Virus genome (UHGV): UHGV-0099061 | Direction: 5' to 3' (one strand) | Length of the DNA: 31,035 nt | DNA from: a virus | Shown here: positions 8,616 through 22,569 of the stretch, piece after piece | Layout: every line of letters starts with the position of its first letter | Position numbering within the stretch: the first letter of the stretch is position 1 | The notes under the pieces: model-generated | What the model was told of the DNA's origin: nothing | Databases searched by the model: none | What the model saw: only the letters and a program-made list of their open reading frames with translations | Position numbers and translations under genes: made by a program

Positions 8616-8636
8616 ATGTATTCAGGAGTAAACATT

Positions 8637-10007
8637 ATGCCATCCAATTTAGAATTGGCGGTTAATGCTGCCTTGTCTCAACGCCAGGCGGCCTTTGCCC
8701 GCTATGCAGCGGCACATCCGTTCACTATGGGGATAGATGCCAAACGTGATGCTGCGTGGAGTGAATACGGATTTAAAGAAGAGATCACGTATCACGATCT
8801 ATACAAACTGTACAGACGCGGCGGCATCGCTCACGGTGCTGTAGAAAAGATTGTTACTACTTGCTGGCGCACCAAGCCAAAGATGATTGAAGGAACTGAA
8901 GACGAGAAAGCGAAAAAGGAAACACCGTGGGAAAGAGAAATCAAGAAGAAATTTAACAACAGATTTTGGCGCACTGTTGCTGAATGTGATCGCCGCCGCC
9001 TCATTGGTCGTTACTCTGGTCTGTTAATTCATATCAGAGATAACAAGCCGTGGGATCAGCCAGTGACAAAAGGCGTAGGCATTGCAAAATTTACCCCTGT
9101 GTGGGCTGGCGCTCTTACACCGAAGGACTTCGAAGAAAACCCGGATAATGAAAACTATGGCCTGCCAACGTGGTGGGAATACAAAGAACGCATTAACAGT
9201 AAGACCATTGCCAGAAAGATCCACCCTGACCGCATATTCATCTTTGGCGACTATTCTGATGATGTCATCGCTTTCCTTGAACCTTCCTACAACGCATTCG
9301 TATCACTGGAAAAAGTGGAAGGCGGTAGTGGTGAATCATTCCTGAAAAACGCAGCGCGTCAGCTTGCCATTTCGTTCGATAAAGAGATTGACTTCCGTTC
9401 CCTGGCTGCAACATACGATTGCGACGTTACAGAGTTACGCGAAAGATTCAATGAGGCTACGGCTGAAATGAATAAGGGTAATGACGTAATGATGGCGTTA
9501 CAGGGTGCGACAGTAAGCCCGCTGGTTACTGCCGTATCTGACCCGTCATCAACCTATGACGTAAACCTGCAAACCGCCGCCGCTGGTGTTGATATTCCAA
9601 CCCGCATCTTGGTTGGGAACCAGCAGGGAGAACGCGCATCAACCGAAGACCTGCGTTACTTCAACAGCCGCTGCATGACCCGCAGGGAGGAAATCGGTGG
9701 CGAGATTGAAGATCTGTTCCGCAAGATGGCAGATCTACGCCTTATCAGTATGCCAGTAGATGTATCAGTGCTATGGGACGACCTTAACGCCATGACCAAA
9801 GCAGAGCTACTGGAAGCCGCAGACAAGATGGCGCAAATCAATCAGGCTTGTTTGGCTACTGGTGAAGAAATATTTAGCGGCGATGAGATCCGCGAGGCTG
9901 CCGGATACGATGGCCCAGCCAGTGAAGTAGAAACGGAAGAGGATGACGATGATGAAGGTGAAGAAAATAATCAGGCGAATACCTCCAGCCGCGATAATGC
10001 CATCTAA
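8637..10007 (+). CDS. portal protein
   Basis: ~456 aa ORF directly after terL; AGGAG SD before ATG 8637; acidic C-terminus; standard packaging-module position. Confidence 0.75.
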   Translation: MPSNLELAVNAALSQRQAAFARYAAAHPFTMGIDAKRDAAWSEYGFKEEITYHDLYKLYRRGGIAHGAVEKIVTTCWRTKPKMIEGTEDEKAKKETPWEREIKKKFNNRFWRTVAECDRRRLIGRYSGLLIHIRDNKPWDQPVTKGVGIAKFTPVWAGALTPKDFEENPDNENYGLPTWWEYKERINSKTIARKIHPDRIFIFGDYSDDVIAFLEPSYNAFVSLEKVEGGSGESFLKNAARQLAISFDKEIDFRSLAATYDCDVTELRERFNEATAEMNKGNDVMMALQGATVSPLVTAVSDPSSTYDVNLQTAAAGVDIPTRILVGNQQGERASTEDLRYFNSRCMTRREEIGGEIEDLFRKMADLRLISMPVDVSVLWDDLNAMTKAELLEAADKMAQINQACLATGEEIFSGDEIREAAGYDGPASEVETEEDDDDEGEENNQANTSSRDNAI

Positions 10008-16059: not shown

Positions 16060-16071
16060 AAGGTGAATACT

Positions 16072-16770
16072 ATGATCCATGTTCGTACAGGACAATTTGC
16101 TGCCGTGGTGAACGGTAAGCGCTATGAGTTTAATCCTTGCTTTGCTGCGATGGCTAAAATCGGCAACGATAGTGAGCTTGTCGAATATTTCGCACTTATC
16201 CACGGCGGCAAATATCCATCACGATTGCCAGCAGATCCAGACCTACGCAATCGCATTCTGGCGCGGTGTTATGGTGAAATAGTTAAGACATCAATGCACA
16301 TCCTGAAATGTTGCTCAGACGACGAAATAGGCCAGTTATTGGGCGAATGCTGGTTTACTCCTTCGGGTAAGTTAAAGTTAAAGCCCGGATTAATGCCGAT
16401 CGAGGATATCATCACGCTTGCGCAGCACTGCATGTACCACGGTCTTATTGGTGATGGCCCGGAAGAAGAGTCCGGGGAAATCCCGGAAGGGGAATATAAG
16501 CCGACTTTTAACGTCCTTGAATTCGTCTATTCTGCCGTTGCTCACCTGGGCTTGTCAGAATCGGAAGCATGGAATATGACAATGACCGGATATAGGGCCG
16601 CTGTACGCGCTAAAACGCCGCCAGACGAAAGAAACGAGAAAAGCAAGCCAAACATTCACATAAATAAACGTGCTTATGACGAGCAAATGGAGGCCGCTAA
16701 AAAGGCACTAGAAAGAATGAAAAATCGTGAGCAAGAAAAGCCCGGTAGATCCGGGCGTTTTGCTAATTGA
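16072..16770 (+). CDS. putative tail assembly chaperone (233 aa)
   Basis: AAGGTGA SD; position between major tail and tape measure genes; no frameshift partner found; 3' end overlaps a convergent reverse-strand gene. Confidence 0.4.
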   Translation: MIHVRTGQFAAVVNGKRYEFNPCFAAMAKIGNDSELVEYFALIHGGKYPSRLPADPDLRNRILARCYGEIVKTSMHILKCCSDDEIGQLLGECWFTPSGKLKLKPGLMPIEDIITLAQHCMYHGLIGDGPEEESGEIPEGEYKPTFNVLEFVYSAVAHLGLSESEAWNMTMTGYRAAVRAKTPPDERNEKSKPNIHINKRAYDEQMEAAKKALERMKNREQEKPGRSGRFAN

Positions 16771-17137
16771 AATCTTTAATTGCTGTACCTGGTGAACTGT
16801 GTGTGATTGTATTGTATACAGACTTTGCCTTACTGCGATCTTTCCATTCTTTTAGGATGCAGTTATCAAACTTTGCGATAACCCTTGAAGGGGATAATTC
16901 TTCAACATCCATGTAAGTAAATCCTATCGTGCTGGTTACTGAATACCATACGTGATAACTATAATTACCGTCATGCTCGATTCTTTGTGGTTCCCCCATT
17001 ATTTTATTCACTTGCTCACAAGTCATTCCAACTTGCAAATTTTTATCAGCTAACTTAACGAAATCAGTTGATCTTGCGCACCCTGTAAGAGCTAAAGCCA
17101 TAACACCAATGAGAACCGCTTTGATTATTTTTTTCAT
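16763..17137 (-). CDS. lipoprotein (124 aa), second gene of reverse-strand pair; BamE/SmpA-like sequence character
   Basis: AAGGGG SD; signal peptide with lipobox LTGC; mature part (..LQVGMTCEQVNKIMGEP..) resembles small BamE-type lipoproteins as recalled. Confidence 0.65.
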   Translation of the reverse strand: MKKIIKAVLIGVMALALTGCARSTDFVKLADKNLQVGMTCEQVNKIMGEPQRIEHDGNYSYHVWYSVTSTIGFTYMDVEELSPSRVIAKFDNCILKEWKDRSKAKSVYNTITHSSPGTAIKDFN

Positions 17138-17147
17138 GATTTACCCC

Positions 17148-17807
17148 TTAATTCCAGTTGCAAGCGTTTTTCACTTTGTCGATGTGGTTATAAAGACCAT
17201 CAATGTTAAACACTGCTTTCTCAATGTCGCCAGCTTCCGGCACTACTTCAATGATGAATTGTTTTTCGTTAACCAGTTTTTTAATCATTGGGATGGCTTT
17301 TTTGCCGTCCCATAATCCAAGAGCTTTATAATTAGTTGACCGCCACCACTCAGTAGCTACAGCTTTGTGAACGCCGATCCGGTAGTTAATATAAGTAGTG
17401 TCCCCGGCGTCAGTTACATGGTGTGACCATGCTACGAACATTTTTGTTTTATTACCCTGGCAAGCGATTGTTAATACCGGTTTATTCTTATCCTGTGCCT
17501 TCAGTGTCGGGAAAGCATCAAGACTTCCGCTGAATTGTTCTGCTTTCACAAAAAGGAATACGTTTTTTGCGTCCTGCATATCATCTTTTCTTTCAACTAC
17601 AAGCCACTGTTTACCAGCATTTTCTTTTTCTAACTGTGCATCGTATGCGGCTTGTTTTGCTTGTTGTTCTGCAAGCCATTTAGCATTTTTCTCTGCTAAT
17701 GCTTGTTGCTCTTGATTGGTCACTATAGGCGCTTTTTCATTATCCTCATTGCAACCAACCAGACCCAATACCGCCGCAATCATTGCCACTTTTGCTAACC
17801 GTTTCAT
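17148..17807 (-). CDS. lipoprotein (219 aa), first gene of reverse-strand pair
   Basis: GGTGGG SD; signal peptide with lipobox LVGC; Gln/Ala-rich coiled-coil-like segment after the lipobox; promoter-like palindrome upstream. Confidence 0.65.
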   Translation of the reverse strand: MKRLAKVAMIAAVLGLVGCNEDNEKAPIVTNQEQQALAEKNAKWLAEQQAKQAAYDAQLEKENAGKQWLVVERKDDMQDAKNVFLFVKAEQFSGSLDAFPTLKAQDKNKPVLTIACQGNKTKMFVAWSHHVTDAGDTTYINYRIGVHKAVATEWWRSTNYKALGLWDGKKAIPMIKKLVNEKQFIIEVVPEAGDIEKAVFNIDGLYNHIDKVKNACNWN

Positions 17808-17852: not shown

Positions 17853-17896
17853 CTTATACAAAATGGAGTCGTTGAAGTAAAGCCATTTTGTATAAA
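17853..17896. promoter_or_regulatory. perfect 12-bp palindrome TATACAAAATGG-16 bp-CCATTTTGTATA, probable divergent promoter/operator
   Basis: Seen directly; each arm gives CCATTTTGTATAA(A/G) pointing outward towards the lipoprotein operon (left) and tape measure gene (right). Confidence 0.55.
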
Positions 17897-17934: not shown

Positions 17935-20277
17935 ATGGCTACCAGTGTAGGTACAATTTATTACGAAGTTGATGCGAAAACTGGTCAACTTCTCGTTGCA
18001 CAACGACAGGCAGACCAGGCCTTTGATCGTATAGAGCGCGGCGCAAAACAGGCTGACCGCCAGGTAAACACCCTGAAAACATCCATCAAGGCACTGACCA
18101 GGGTTATCCATCTGCTAATTGCTGCGGAGGCTGTGCGCCAATTTATGGATATGGCGGAGCAAGCAAAAATGCTTCGCGTAAAAATCAAAATGCTTACGGG
18201 CGATGCGGAGTCCGCCGGACGGGTTTTCGACGGCCTGAAAGCAATATCCAGGGAGACGGGGCAGAGCCTGAAAGATACTGGCGAATTATGGCAAGGCCTG
18301 GCTATCTCACTAAAAAACACCTCCGCTACGGAAGGGCAATTGCTTAACCTGGTTGGCACTATTCAGAAAATGGGTGCATTAGGCGGCGCGTCAGCGGAAC
18401 AGATGTCTAACTCAATGCGTCAATTCCGTCAGTCTATCGACGGCGGTGTTCTTCGTGCCGAAGAATTTAACAGCCTGCTTGAAAATACGCCGACCATCGT
18501 ACAAACAATGGCCCGCCATATGGGATTATCAATGGGCCAGTTCCGCGCCGAAATGCTGGACGGCAAGATCACGGCTGAAAGGATGGTTAACGCAATACAG
18601 GCGGCTACGCAGGAAACAAACGATAAGTTTGCTCAGTTGCCGCGCACATCCGGCATGGCTATCAATGAGCTTAAAGTAGAAATTATGGGCCTTGTTGAGC
18701 AGTTGGATGATCTTTTTGGCGTGTCAGATGGCGTTGTTTCAGCTATCGACTTGATCACGAAAGGCGTTAAAGGGCTTGGCGATGGCGCTAAATTCGCTAA
18801 AACCTGCTTCGACACACTCAAAACGGCTGGTAGCGAATTTATCGACATGTTTGATGATGTGGCTGTTAAGGCTGGAGAGGTGGCAGAGAAGATCATCGCA
18901 ATGGTGACGCCAATCAAGGCGCTAATGGATGGCTATAAATGGATGAAGGAGGTAGTAGGAGAGCAAACCGACGAATATAACAGCAACTACGAGAAGAAAT
19001 ACGGGAAGACCGTTGGCAAGGTCATGCAACTACAGGATGATCTGACCGCAGCAATCCAGGCTACAGAAGAAGCAAGGAAAAATGAACAGAATGCTGCCAA
19101 TGACGGAGCGATTACCGGATTCGACAAGCCAGTAGACAAGCCGAAAAAACAGAAAAAAGAGAAGAAATCGGAAGCTGATCGGCTTGGTGACAAAGGTATA
19201 AGCGTTTCTGATCAGTATAACAAAGACGCCGCCGCCATGCGCAAAGCGTTGGAGAACGGCAAGGCCATTGATGCTGCATTTGCCCAGGGTAAAATCACGC
19301 TCCTTGAGTACCGCGCCGCGCAAAAAGGGATCGGCAAGGAACTGAAAGAAGAATTAGCACAAATTCCGGTAGATGAATTGCGTGATAAATGGTCACAAAT
19401 AGTAAGCCCGATGGATCAGCTAAAAGGCGAAGTTGACCCCATCCAGCAGGCGCAAAATGAATGGGCCATCCGTAAGCAAATGCTTATAGACCTGGGCGCT
19501 ACTGAAGCGCAACAGAAACAGGAATTGTTAGCCTATGAGCAACAGATCCGCGATCTGAAATGGGAACAATGGCAGGCGCAAAGCGACACAAACGGCCTTA
19601 TCGGTGATTGTGTTAATGGCCTTAAAGGCGGAATGAGTAATGCGCTTGTTGGCCTGTTAAACGGCACTCAATCATTGAGTGATGTTTTTGCTAACTTAGG
19701 AAGCAATATACTCGGCAATATCGGTAACAGACTCTCAGACATAGCTGCAAACTGGATAGCAGATCAGATCATGATGGAGACACAAAGCAAGGCCACGCAA
19801 ACAAGTACAACAGCAAGCGCGGTAGCAGCTCAGGGAAGCATTGCTGCGGCGGCGGCCCCAGCAGCGGCGGCAACTGCGGCGTCAACTGGCGGTAGCTGGG
19901 CGGCGGCTGGTTCGGCGGCGCTCACTGCGATCATGTCGCTGGCTACGTCAATTTTCGGCGGCGGTCGCTTTAATGGTGGTAGCGTCATTGGTGGTAATAT
20001 GTACCGCGTAGGGGAACACAACAGGCCGGAGCTATTCCAGACATCTAACGGCAATCAATATATGATCCCTGGCGAGAACGGCAGAGTTATTCCGGGCCGT
20101 GATATTGGCGGCGGTGGCGGTATTAGTATGCCTGTCAGTATCAGCATTCAGACCACGAACGGATTCAGCGACGAAGACAGCCGCAGACTTGAATTAACAA
20201 TGGAACGTGTAGCCATGAAAATGATAACAAGGGAATCTCAAAGACCAGGCGGAATGTTGCAACCTCGCCGCAAATAA
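17935..20277 (+). CDS. tail tape measure protein
   Basis: 780 aa, largest ORF between tail tube and tip genes; helical N-terminal region; Gly/Ala-rich hydrophobic segment near C-terminus; GAGGT SD. Confidence 0.8.
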   Translation: MATSVGTIYYEVDAKTGQLLVAQRQADQAFDRIERGAKQADRQVNTLKTSIKALTRVIHLLIAAEAVRQFMDMAEQAKMLRVKIKMLTGDAESAGRVFDGLKAISRETGQSLKDTGELWQGLAISLKNTSATEGQLLNLVGTIQKMGALGGASAEQMSNSMRQFRQSIDGGVLRAEEFNSLLENTPTIVQTMARHMGLSMGQFRAEMLDGKITAERMVNAIQAATQETNDKFAQLPRTSGMAINELKVEIMGLVEQLDDLFGVSDGVVSAIDLITKGVKGLGDGAKFAKTCFDTLKTAGSEFIDMFDDVAVKAGEVAEKIIAMVTPIKALMDGYKWMKEVVGEQTDEYNSNYEKKYGKTVGKVMQLQDDLTAAIQATEEARKNEQNAANDGAITGFDKPVDKPKKQKKEKKSEADRLGDKGISVSDQYNKDAAAMRKALENGKAIDAAFAQGKITLLEYRAAQKGIGKELKEELAQIPVDELRDKWSQIVSPMDQLKGEVDPIQQAQNEWAIRKQMLIDLGATEAQQKQELLAYEQQIRDLKWEQWQAQSDTNGLIGDCVNGLKGGMSNALVGLLNGTQSLSDVFANLGSNILGNIGNRLSDIAANWIADQIMMETQSKATQTSTTASAVAAQGSIAAAAAPAAAATAASTGGSWAAAGSAALTAIMSLATSIFGGGRFNGGSVIGGNMYRVGEHNRPELFQTSNGNQYMIPGENGRVIPGRDIGGGGGISMPVSISIQTTNGFSDEDSRRLELTMERVAMKMITRESQRPGGMLQPRRK

Positions 20278-20363: not shown

Positions 20364-20618
20364 TCACTTATGAGTGCCTTTCACGCCACATAACTTGTTA
20401 TAGGCATGGTGCTCAACAATTAACCAAACCTTCAAATCTTCGCTAAACAGCCTCCAATCAAGATTGATATCCATTTTGTATCCGTAACCGTCGCGTAACT
20501 TTTTGGGGTAAACTTCTTTTCTCAGAAAGGCTTTAAGTAATTCCTTACCTTTCTTGATGATCCGGTCCTGTGCGTTTTTCTGTGCTTTCAGATTTCTGTC
20601 AATCGCTACCAGTTTCAT
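20364..20618 (-). CDS. hypothetical basic protein (84 aa), second gene of reverse-strand two-gene cassette
   Basis: ORF with GGGGTGAG SD 17 nt after the stop of the upstream 51-aa ORF; Lys/Arg-rich N-terminal half. Confidence 0.5.
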   Translation of the reverse strand: MKLVAIDRNLKAQKNAQDRIIKKGKELLKAFLRKEVYPKKLRDGYGYKMDINLDWRLFSEDLKVWLIVEHHAYNKLCGVKGTHK

Positions 20619-20635
20619 AACTCACCCCATCATCC

Positions 20636-20791
20636 TTAGTTAAGTGCCTTCAGGAAGAAGTCCCGGTATTCATCTTCTTTCGCATTCATCATGAATTGAC
20701 CGTATTTGAATGCGTCGTCGAAACCCTTAACGATTGCTATTTCCACTTGTTCGAATGCGTTATTTAGCATTACTACTACATAGCGTTTCAT
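20636..20791 (-). CDS. hypothetical small protein (51 aa), first gene of reverse-strand two-gene cassette
   Basis: Found by reading; GGAGG SD 5 nt upstream of ATG; MKRYVVVMLNNAFEQVEIAIVKGFDDAFKYGQFMMNAKEDEYRDFFLKALN. Confidence 0.4.
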   Translation of the reverse strand: MKRYVVVMLNNAFEQVEIAIVKGFDDAFKYGQFMMNAKEDEYRDFFLKALN

Positions 20792-21923: not shown

Positions 21924-22271
21924 TTATTTATCGAATGCTGAAAGGTTATCGATACAGAAATCTTTCGCCGCTTTTTCGTATTCGCGTTTTGCTTCTGGAT
22001 CGTCAGCCGGGAAACCTTTTGCGTGTATTTCACCAGGGCAAGACTGGTCCATAGAATCTGCATAATAAGCAGTGAAGCTACCATTAATATCTTTCGGGTT
22101 CATATCTTCCACCTCATCAACTATCTGTACCGGATTAGCAGCATATTTCACTGGATGGCCTAAACTACATTCAAGAATCCTGCCTTCTTCCAGGGCTACT
22201 TCTTCGCTATCAAATAATCCGAAACACTCCTTGCTACCACTTAACCACACATCAAGACTGTATTTTTTCAT
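21924..22271 (-). CDS. hypothetical protein (115 aa), second gene of reverse-strand trio
   Basis: ATG 22271 with GAGG 9 nt upstream preferred over longer track ORF (to 22373); overlaps upstream gene by 20 nt. Confidence 0.45.
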   Translation of the reverse strand: MKKYSLDVWLSGSKECFGLFDSEEVALEEGRILECSLGHPVKYAANPVQIVDEVEDMNPKDINGSFTAYYADSMDQSCPGEIHAKGFPADDPEAKREYEKAAKDFCIDNLSAFDK

Positions 22272-22440
22272 TTTTGTTAGCCTCATATTTGACAGGTTCG
22301 ATCTGGTATCCCAAAAGGCGGTCATCCTCAGCAAGTAAAAGCGCGTCAACCAATGCTTCACCCTCGTCGTCATACAGGGCGATAACCTTTTCCCTACCGT
22401 CTGTCATGAATACCGTCAACTTCCATAGCTTTTCAGTCAT
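22252..22440 (-). CDS. hypothetical acidic small protein (62 aa), first gene of reverse-strand trio
   Basis: Strong GGAGGTG SD 6 nt upstream of ATG 22440 (longer track ORF to 22560 has no SD); Asp/Glu-rich. Confidence 0.5.
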   Translation of the reverse strand: MTEKLWKLTVFMTDGREKVIALYDDEGEALVDALLLAEDDRLLGYQIEPVKYEANKNEKIQS

Positions 22441-22569
22441 AACGCACCTCCGCGCCATTTTGTTAACTATGCTTCCGTTTGAGTAAAATATACATATTGT
22501 AAAAACCGCGATCAATCCATTTTGGTATGATTTAGCGTGACGCAGATCACAGAATGACAAGGTGAGAAA

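Follow-up and report, generated by a model that had tools for sequence, protein, structure and literature searches.

What are two lipoprotein genes, read against the direction of their neighbours, doing in the middle of a phage tail operon? The question is raised by UHGV virus genome UHGV-0099061, a stretch of 31,035 nucleotides (hereafter the window, along which all positions are given) that belongs to an mEp021-like (mEpimmI) temperate siphophage or prophage of E. coli and in which minus-strand genes for proteins of 219 and 124 amino acids (aa) lie between a DUF6246 gene at the tail-assembly-chaperone position and the gene for the tape measure protein (TMP). The region is, in all likelihood, a moron with two independent cargo genes for outer-membrane-anchored periplasmic lipoproteins; tentatively, and with rather less than even confidence, these are taken to provide prophage-expressed envelope protection against superinfecting phage that would act after adsorption, in the manner of HK97 gp15. 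HK97 gene 15, the first moron to be described, is located between the tail chaperone and TMP genes and is expressed from the prophage; its product, an envelope protein, stops the injection of the genome while leaving the receptor alone (PMC3594210). The original prediction for this locus, which proposed an operon of two lipoproteins and pointed to receptor-blocking exclusion factors, had overlooked the VasI/TagO domain of the larger protein, as well as the fact that HK97 gene 15 made this very slot the archetype for morons.

The existence of both genes and the lipoprotein character of their products are well supported. The original prediction had described two minus-strand genes between the chaperone-position and tape measure genes, lipoboxes (LVGC and LTGC) lacking Asp at +2, an 8-nt overlap of the 124-aa gene with the chaperone-position gene, and a palindrome beside the gene pair; each of these descriptions was borne out, by the open reading frame (ORF) list, the fit of the lipobox pattern, an overlap at 16763-16770, and a perfect 13-nt repeat with a 16-nt spacer (17854-17895), respectively. 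The 219-aa protein begins with MKRLAKVAMIAAVLGLVGC, followed by NEDN (lipobox LVGC, Cys19), and the 124-aa protein with MKKIIKAVLIGVMALALTGC, followed by ARST (lipobox LTGC, Cys20). The pattern applied was [LVI][ASTVI][GAS]C, and in both proteins the lipobox is preceded by a K/R-rich n-region and a hydrophobic h-region, as expected of bacterial lipoprotein signals; its Cys and Gly are invariant among homologues of the larger (12 of 12) and smaller (9 of 9) protein. Because the +2 residues are Asn and Ala, respectively, sorting to the outer membrane is predicted by the E. coli +2 rule, under which both proteins would be lipid-modified and outer-membrane-located. The mature domain of each protein also holds an invariant Cys pair, which fits with a periplasmic location.

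Purifying selection acts on both genes, with ratios of nonsynonymous to synonymous substitution (dN/dS) of 0.20-0.26 for the 219-aa (VasI) gene and 0.07-0.16 for the 124-aa gene; together with the recurrence of both genes in dozens of prophage and viral contigs, these values rule out chance ORFs. Among 5426 complete E. coli genomes, 15 carry the exact two-gene module, in each case on the chromosome; it is also present in 17 IMG/VR viral contigs, and its products are already named in RefSeq as "type VI secretion system-associated protein TagO" and "hypothetical protein." A 10-nt gap separates the two genes, which are preceded by Shine-Dalgarno-like sequences (GGTGG before the 219-aa gene and AAGGGG before the 124-aa gene).

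The gene pair also has candidate transcription signals of its own (Table 1). Its GC-rich terminator hairpin is located 7 nt past the stop codon of the 124-aa gene, within the 3' end of the DUF6246 gene, and a counterpart minus-strand terminator is annotated in mEp021, mEp013, mEp515, and mEp010. The putative promoter has its -10 element inside the left arm of the palindrome, where most relatives read TATAAA. With a putative promoter and a terminator of its own, the unit could be expressed from a repressed prophage, although the function of the promoter and such expression are features that we infer from the sequence. Whatever the cargo, all eight aligned relatives keep the palindrome as well as the opening codons of the promoter-proximal gene, a conservation that marks the palindrome as an element of the phage backbone rather than of the cargo; its conceivable roles are those of an operator, of a restart-promoter element, and of a linker in recombination. 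As for the overlap at the other end, the DUF6246 ORF runs through the terminator hairpin (..PGRSGRFAN) and enters the 124-aa gene at its 3' end (16740-16770). In relatives such as locus L004 and M1/5, this ORF ends ahead of the cargo, so that the overlap is a lineage-specific C-terminal extension.

Comparison with related phages identifies the interval as a site of cargo exchange. The flanks are 81-89% identical to MagusPhagus, mEp013, mEp554, and mEp021, the stretch from the DUF6246 gene to the TMP gene being unmatched, and the GC content of the gene pair (0.37-0.42) is below that of the flanks (0.46-0.53). The slot was surveyed through gene neighbourhoods, tblastn over all fetched loci (designated by L numbers), and six sequenced mEp phages; between syntenic flanks, the cargo was found to be present, absent, or replaced in mEp021, mEp010, mEp013, mEp044, mEp515, mEp554, MagusPhagus, and many prophages. 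The slot has two positions and is combinatorial, with at least nine different cargos. The promoter-proximal position is occupied by the VasI lipoprotein, a 138-aa secreted protein, related secreted proteins of 119 and 129 aa, a 59-aa transmembrane protein, or a 35-aa transmembrane protein, and the distal position by the 124-aa lipoprotein, a 106-aa protein without a signal peptide, a 100-aa transmembrane protein, or nothing. The VasI gene accompanies the 124-aa gene in the window and in L004-7, L015-21, and L029, accompanies the gene for the unrelated 106-aa protein in L014, L022-25, L027, L028, and L030, and stands alone in L008 and L031; homologues of the 124-aa protein are in turn joined to the 138-aa protein in L040, to the 129-aa protein in L010-12, and to the 59-aa protein in mEp013. 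The "two-gene module" that had been proposed is thus not a unit, and an obligate two-component system was rejected because the VasI and 124-aa genes assort independently. Nearly all of the alternative cargos bear signal peptides or transmembrane segments, and Pfam and PHROG searches of the 106-, 129-, 138-, and 59-aa cargos provided no functional clue.

Unrelated promoter-proximal cargos begin alike: the VasI lipoprotein and the 129-aa protein both start with MKRLAKV.., the 138-aa protein starts with MKRLIKA.., and MKSLAK.. or MKSLIN.. opens the 119- and 59-aa proteins. The shared start region comprises window positions 17751-17807 and the matching 5' ends in L002, L010, L045, and L003, the first codons being conserved at the DNA level, which suggests that cargo-exchange breakpoints lie inside the signal-peptide coding region.

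Table 1. Coordinates of the two lipoprotein genes, the slot boundaries, and the associated signals in the window.
Feature	Position	Strand	Basis and remarks
219-aa lipoprotein gene	17148..17807	minus	ORF list
124-aa lipoprotein gene	16763..17137	minus	ORF list
Slot left boundary: DUF6246 gene, tail-assembly-chaperone position	16063..16770	plus	Pfam PF19759, 184.7 bits; synteny kept in all relatives
Slot right boundary: TMP gene	17935..20277	plus	Pfam TMP_3, 169 bits; PHROG 1538
Putative sigma-70 promoter of the two-gene unit	17853..17881	minus	TTTACT (17881-17876), 17-nt spacer, TATAAG (17858-17853); by eye and script
Perfect 13-nt inverted repeat	17854-17866/17883-17895	both	TTATACAAAATGG-N16-CCATTTTGTATAA; divergent intergenic region, flanked by the starts of the 219-aa and TMP genes
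Terminator hairpin	16740..16756	minus (T-run)	GCCCGG-TAGAT-CCGGGC; looks bidirectional; terminator scan

In the 219-aa protein, the signal peptide and Cys19 lead through a short tether into a long helix (residues ~31-63), and the C-terminal part (~55-218) is a VasI/TagO beta-sandwich. It matches Pfam VasI (PF11319) with 58.1 bits against a gathering cut-off of 26.5 (E=1.2e-15; residues 55-218, profile positions 25-184 of 184), retains all residues that are invariant in a 60-sequence alignment of the family (C116, T121, R143, C216, and W218), and carries the C-terminal ACNW motif. Its score for TIGR03360, the VasI/TagO equivalog of type VI secretion systems (T6SS), is 47.4 bits and falls under the NCBIfam cut-off of 124.2; in the loci examined, the VasI gene is always located between or beside phage DUF6246 and TMP genes and never within a T6SS cluster. 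Typical VasI members possess a signal peptidase I (SPI) signal peptide and one or more RLxCYD motifs, with a lipobox in few, whereas the window protein has a lipobox and a helix instead. An exhaustive profile search returned 1868 representative relatives, 585 of them at E<=1e-10 and just 5 at E<=1e-30, which leaves the phage clade isolated inside a large VasI family. This clade has so far been found only in E. coli and Shigella prophages; a renewed profile search of an index of 5.8 billion proteins, based on a 12-member alignment, yielded nothing further, and the same alignment turned up no relative when GTDB species genomes were scanned.

VasI-domain genes at ~27% identity are found in other temperate phages, at typical positions of lysogenic conversion. 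In Brucella phage BiPBO1 (L043, 2910-4327), a 201-aa VasI-domain protein, gp67, is encoded directly downstream of and co-directionally with the repressor gp68, a layout that recalls lysogen-expressed exclusion genes co-transcribed with cI. In P2-like phages, represented by Escherichia phage 500465-2 (L041, 3358-4588) and Citrobacter phage phiSM (L042), a two-gene cassette located after ogr, at the end of the prophage, encodes a 110-aa zinc-ribbon protein with predicted transmembrane segments; its other product is a secreted protein of 297 aa in which three RLxCYD repeats accompany a VasI domain. The "tagO" label of phiSM has been placed on the zinc-ribbon gene and looks like an annotation slip.

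The 124-aa protein combines Cys20 with an alpha-alpha-beta fold of the BamE/OsmE/BLIP type; it also shows the motif LQVGMTCEQVNKIMGEP and an invariant pair of cysteines, Cys40 and Cys93. The BamE/SmpA-like character that the original prediction ascribed to this protein stands at the level of the fold, for which a structure prediction was run, and is only sub-threshold at the level of sequence in hidden Markov model (HMM) searches: BamE (Pfam PF04355) scores 18.9 against a cut-off of 23.2 and OsmE (NF008423) 17.8 against 65, and a match to DUF7738 is likewise sub-threshold. The model, with a predicted local distance difference test score (pLDDT) of 70, matches solved structures of OsmE (6.7), a BLIP-like protein (6.7), the BLIP-like protein BLP (6.3), BamE (6.3), the B. 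fragilis T6SS immunity protein BtiO (5.9), and BLIP (5.8). A BFVD fold search with the same model returned weak "lipoprotein" matches (TM-score ~0.4), and searches of PDB sequences with profiles of both window proteins returned noise alone. A protein of a bat-gut siphovirus, 29% identical to the 124-aa protein and annotated SmpA/OmlA, is found among tail-region morons.

On the reading favoured here, leftward transcription would start from the sigma-70-type promoter in the palindromic intergenic region and end at the hairpin past the second gene. Both products would be exported by Sec, would receive lipid on Cys19 and Cys20, and would be delivered by Lol to the outer membrane, on its periplasmic face, the first presenting a VasI/TagO (IalB-like) beta-sandwich on a helical stalk of ~33 residues and the second a compact BamE/OsmE/BLIP-like domain. 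Each protein alone, in the periplasm of the lysogen, would then block an incoming envelope-crossing attack. The likeliest target would be a superinfecting phage after adsorption, when its tail tip or tape measure and its DNA cross the periplasm; the logic would follow the HK97 gp15 moron, which occupies this slot too, and not the receptor masking of Cor and Llp. A precedent for the fold is offered by the Serratia SDIC4 module, and the recurrence of VasI-domain genes at lysogenic-conversion positions in other temperate phages also speaks for this reading, as does the absence of the mEp021 slot protein from the annotated virion structural proteins of that phage. Superinfection exclusion in the broad sense, which the original prediction had also put forward, remains the best guess.

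Several points nevertheless weigh against this reading. The protective function and its target are ones that we infer, and even within T6SS loci the role of VasI is unexplained: VasI of V. cholerae (VCA0118) is exported, dispensable for Hcp secretion, and required for full T6SS killing by an unexplained mechanism (PMC3166118), and a 2026 review still lists the function of TagO/VasI as unknown (PMC13584744). The BamE/BLIP fold is generic and would suit enzyme inhibitors, T6SS immunity proteins, and accessory proteins of the BAM complex as well, and the structural models are of moderate confidence (pLDDT ~70). A consensus promoter scan called no promoter for the unit, which was missed because the final base of the -10 element is G. 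PADLOC found no match to a defence family, and there was no match to any PHROG family annotated as exclusion. Finally, no sequence or profile similarity was detected to SDIC4A and SDIC4B, the components of a Serratia anti-phage system that is considered below: BLASTP and HMM comparisons gave nothing and hhalign gave a probability of <1%, a weak test given that single SDIC4 sequences were compared.

The cargo may instead serve the fitness or virulence of the host, through envelope stress, BAM tuning, serum resistance, or adhesion and invasion, in the way of Bor, Lom, IalB, and OsmE, an explanation that is considered unlikely. Bor and Lom are morons that play such roles (PMC3594210), the VasI gene of the phiSM prophage of C. 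rodentium has already been listed as candidate virulence cargo (PMC6456863), and the VasI protein of the P2-like phages also weakly matches Pfam IalB; moreover, the model of the 124-aa protein matches OsmE and BamE, and the hosts are mostly human and food isolates, Shiga toxin-producing E. coli included. Nevertheless, these BamE and OsmE resemblances stay under threshold in sequence, and the module is rare among complete E. coli genomes. The slot also exchanges unrelated envelope proteins rapidly and in varying combinations, a pattern more typical of conflict genes than of housekeeping-like ones.

Given the domain of the larger protein, a T6SS connection must likewise be weighed, wherein one or both lipoproteins would shield the periplasm from T6SS attack, as an orphan immunity or shield protein, or would modulate the T6SS of the host itself. 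The score above the Pfam VasI gathering cut-off, the TagO name given by NCBI, and the contribution of VCA0118 to T6SS killing despite its dispensability for Hcp secretion (PMC3166118) all speak for such a role. However, the gene is located in a phage tail operon rather than a T6SS locus, its 47 bits are far from the 124-bit equivalog cut-off, the canonical N-terminal RLxCYD region has been replaced by the lipobox and helix, and the phage clade stands apart from the family at large, as the small number of representatives at E<=1e-30 attests. In addition, VasI itself is not known as an immunity protein, and the fold matches of the smaller protein, BtiO among them, are generic and of moderate Z score. 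We therefore regard this explanation as rather improbable.

A further and speculative view, to which we would assign a low likelihood, is that VasI proteins are widespread periplasmic "needle blockers" that have been captured repeatedly by temperate phages and bind either an incoming phage tail, at its tip or tape-measure conduit, or the homologous T6SS spike on the way across the periplasm. VasI would be tethered to the outer membrane in the window and soluble in BiPBO1 and the P2-like phages, and lysogens would resist phage injection, T6SS attack, or both. The presence of VasI in some T6SS loci, where it is dispensable for secretion, would be explained, and the neighbouring lipoprotein with the BamE/BLIP fold would act independently, inhibiting a cell-wall enzyme borne by a tail or an effector.

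Receptor masking, in which the lipoproteins would bind the phage's own outer-membrane receptor and stop adsorption or triggering, was suggested by the original prediction with reference to Cor and Llp, and has points in its favour: both proteins are predicted outer-membrane lipoproteins of a temperate phage, and the mEpimmI family is known to employ lipoproteins for exclusion, Lpp021 excluding OmpA-using phages and Lpp010 LamB-using phages (PMC11893012). The window also lacks a proper Cor-like lipoprotein after J, and the function could have moved. The product encoded there instead (29506-29751, minus strand) has 81 aa and begins with a signal peptide of the SPI type, MKKLIVACILSALSFGAFA, followed by SV; its "IVAC" fits the lipobox expression, yet just 7 residues precede the Cys, and the protein has no match in the phage collection and a weak match to PHROG 2243. 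The position of the gene pair is nevertheless not the classical one that had been supposed. The tested Cor-like Lpp lipoproteins of mEpimmI phages are encoded downstream of J, are ~72 aa in length (Lpp021 is a 72-aa Cys-rich lipoprotein), and track receptor type, whereas the slot cargo does not: the OmpA phage mEp021 and the LamB phage mEp010 carry the same 138-aa cargo, and three different cargos are distributed among the LamB phages mEp010, mEp013, and mEp044/mEp554. Masking of the receptor that the phage itself uses is therefore unsupported. The genes thus show no co-variation with the receptor from a position beside the receptor-binding gene, the Lpp gene sitting after J and the slot cargo being shared. 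The window proteins are 2-3 times the size of Cor or Llp, no sequence or fold similarity to a known Cor, Llp, or Lpp member was found, and mEp013 has a homologue of the 124-aa protein and a type-C Lpp together. Receptor masking is accordingly judged doubtful at best, and Cor-like self-exclusion was dropped as the leading idea.

A role in the phage life cycle, whether in lysis as a spanin-like lipoprotein or in the tail as an assembly or structural factor, is essentially excluded: the location within the tail gene cluster, the coiled-coil-like helix on a lipoprotein that superficially recalls spanins, and a weak Rz-like PHROG match (E=0.089) are outweighed by a complete and separate lysis cassette with endolysin and Rz-like spanin (3984-5014), by viable relatives without both genes (mEp021, mEp010, mEp044, mEp554, and MagusPhagus), by the opposite strand and own terminator of the pair, and by the absence of a C-terminal transmembrane domain from both proteins.

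Elsewhere in the window, other features touch on the organisation of the locus. The tail operon is not otherwise unidirectional, as had been stated, since minus-strand cassettes are also located at 20364-20791, ~21924-22560, and 29506-29808. The first of these follows directly past the TMP gene and comprises ORFs at 20364-20618 and 20636-20791; its 84-aa product is named "ParE family toxin-like protein" in RefSeq and matches Pfam ParE_like in near-identical prophages, and a 51-aa ORF comes next. Half-sites of the palindrome (CCATTTTGTATAA, <=2 mismatches) occur 8 times in the window, at 1222, 1549, 17854, 17883, 20471, 20862, 20930, and 29867, against 1.39 expected, and 0 of 100 shuffles reached 8. 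Some of them lie at the points where the tail genes resume after a minus-strand cassette (20.8-20.9 kb and 29.87 kb). The whole element occurs a second time on the minus strand at ~1520-1585, between plus-strand ORFs, and there reads AGCTTC-TTATAaCAAAATGG-N16-CCATTTTGTAaAc-N11-AGATCAC. The gene at the portal position (8616-10007, plus strand; 5861-7231 in L049), which matches Pfam Phage_portal_3 in relatives, is named "anti-CBASS protein Acb1 family protein" in RefSeq, probably a naming artefact of a shared family model. An Rfam scan of the window gave no match.

For now, the locus is a well-behaved case of something already familiar, a moron in the position of HK97 gene 15; both of its genes are in RefSeq already, and its interest is modest unless VasI domains turn out to block phage tails or T6SS needles in general. 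If either protein does block phage entry or T6SS attack, a first molecular function would be available for the VasI/TagO domain, with its ~1,900 representative sequences, and, in keeping with what the Serratia SDIC4 work hints at, a T6SS accessory protein would be tied to defence against phages. The chaperone/TMP slot of mEpimmI phages would then represent a natural library of envelope-acting conflict genes.

Set beside known systems, each protein resembles a family from which it also departs. The 219-aa protein shares with VasI/TagO (VCA0118; PF11319, TIGR03360) the exported domain of the C-terminal ~160 residues, and differs in that VasI/TagO is an accessory protein of some T6SS loci and usually has an SPI signal and RLxCYD, whereas the window protein has a lipobox and helical stalk and a phage locus. 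Unlike BamE/OsmE (SmpA_OmlA), the 124-aa protein has a C-terminal tail of ~25 residues and a conserved Cys pair, and is phage-borne and dispensable. Cor (phi80/N15/HK022), Llp (T5), and Lpp021/Lpp010 are likewise phage outer-membrane lipoproteins made by the infected or lysogenic cell, but those proteins are ~60-75 aa in length, adjoin J or a tail fibre gene, and follow the receptor in type, whereas the window proteins, of 219 and 124 aa, adjoin the TMP gene, do not track receptor type, and show no similarity to them.

Among prophage lipoproteins that act after adsorption, Ltp of Streptococcus phage TP-J34 excludes superinfecting phage at this stage (PMC3952083). It differs from the window proteins in its Gram-positive host, its unrelated fold, and its gene, which belongs to the lysogeny module and not to a tail operon. 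Its target is reportedly the incoming tape measure protein. The Serratia SDIC4 system, for its part, is a two-gene anti-phage system that gives 10-200-fold protection in E. coli, its B component, with a VasI-like fold, being sufficient (bioRxiv 10.1101/2024.01.28.577318). The sequences of SDIC4A and SDIC4B, taken in gene order from pGM249 in Supplementary file 3 of the preprint, both carry signal peptides, which makes SDIC4 a periplasmic module; neither matches Pfam VasI. The pGM248 entry of the same file, described as SDIC3, contains only the second ORF of pGM249, and the table rows may be mislabelled. SDIC4 is thus like the window pair in having two genes, signal peptides on both products, a reported VasI-like fold, and no link to a T6SS, and unlike it in consisting of soluble SPI-type proteins encoded in a chromosomal defence island beside BrxR rather than as phage cargo.

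Finally, HK97 gene 15 offers the comparison on which the favoured reading of post-adsorption protection is modelled. Whereas gp15 is a single small inner-membrane YebO-like protein, the window encodes two outer-membrane-type lipoproteins, one VasI and the other BamE-like; there is no sequence relationship between gp15 and these proteins, and exclusion has been demonstrated for gp15 and is predicted here. What the two loci have in common is the slot itself, an autonomous unit with its own terminator and a promoter that is putative in the window, a deviant GC content, and a product that is an envelope protein in HK97 (PMC3594210) and is predicted to be one here.

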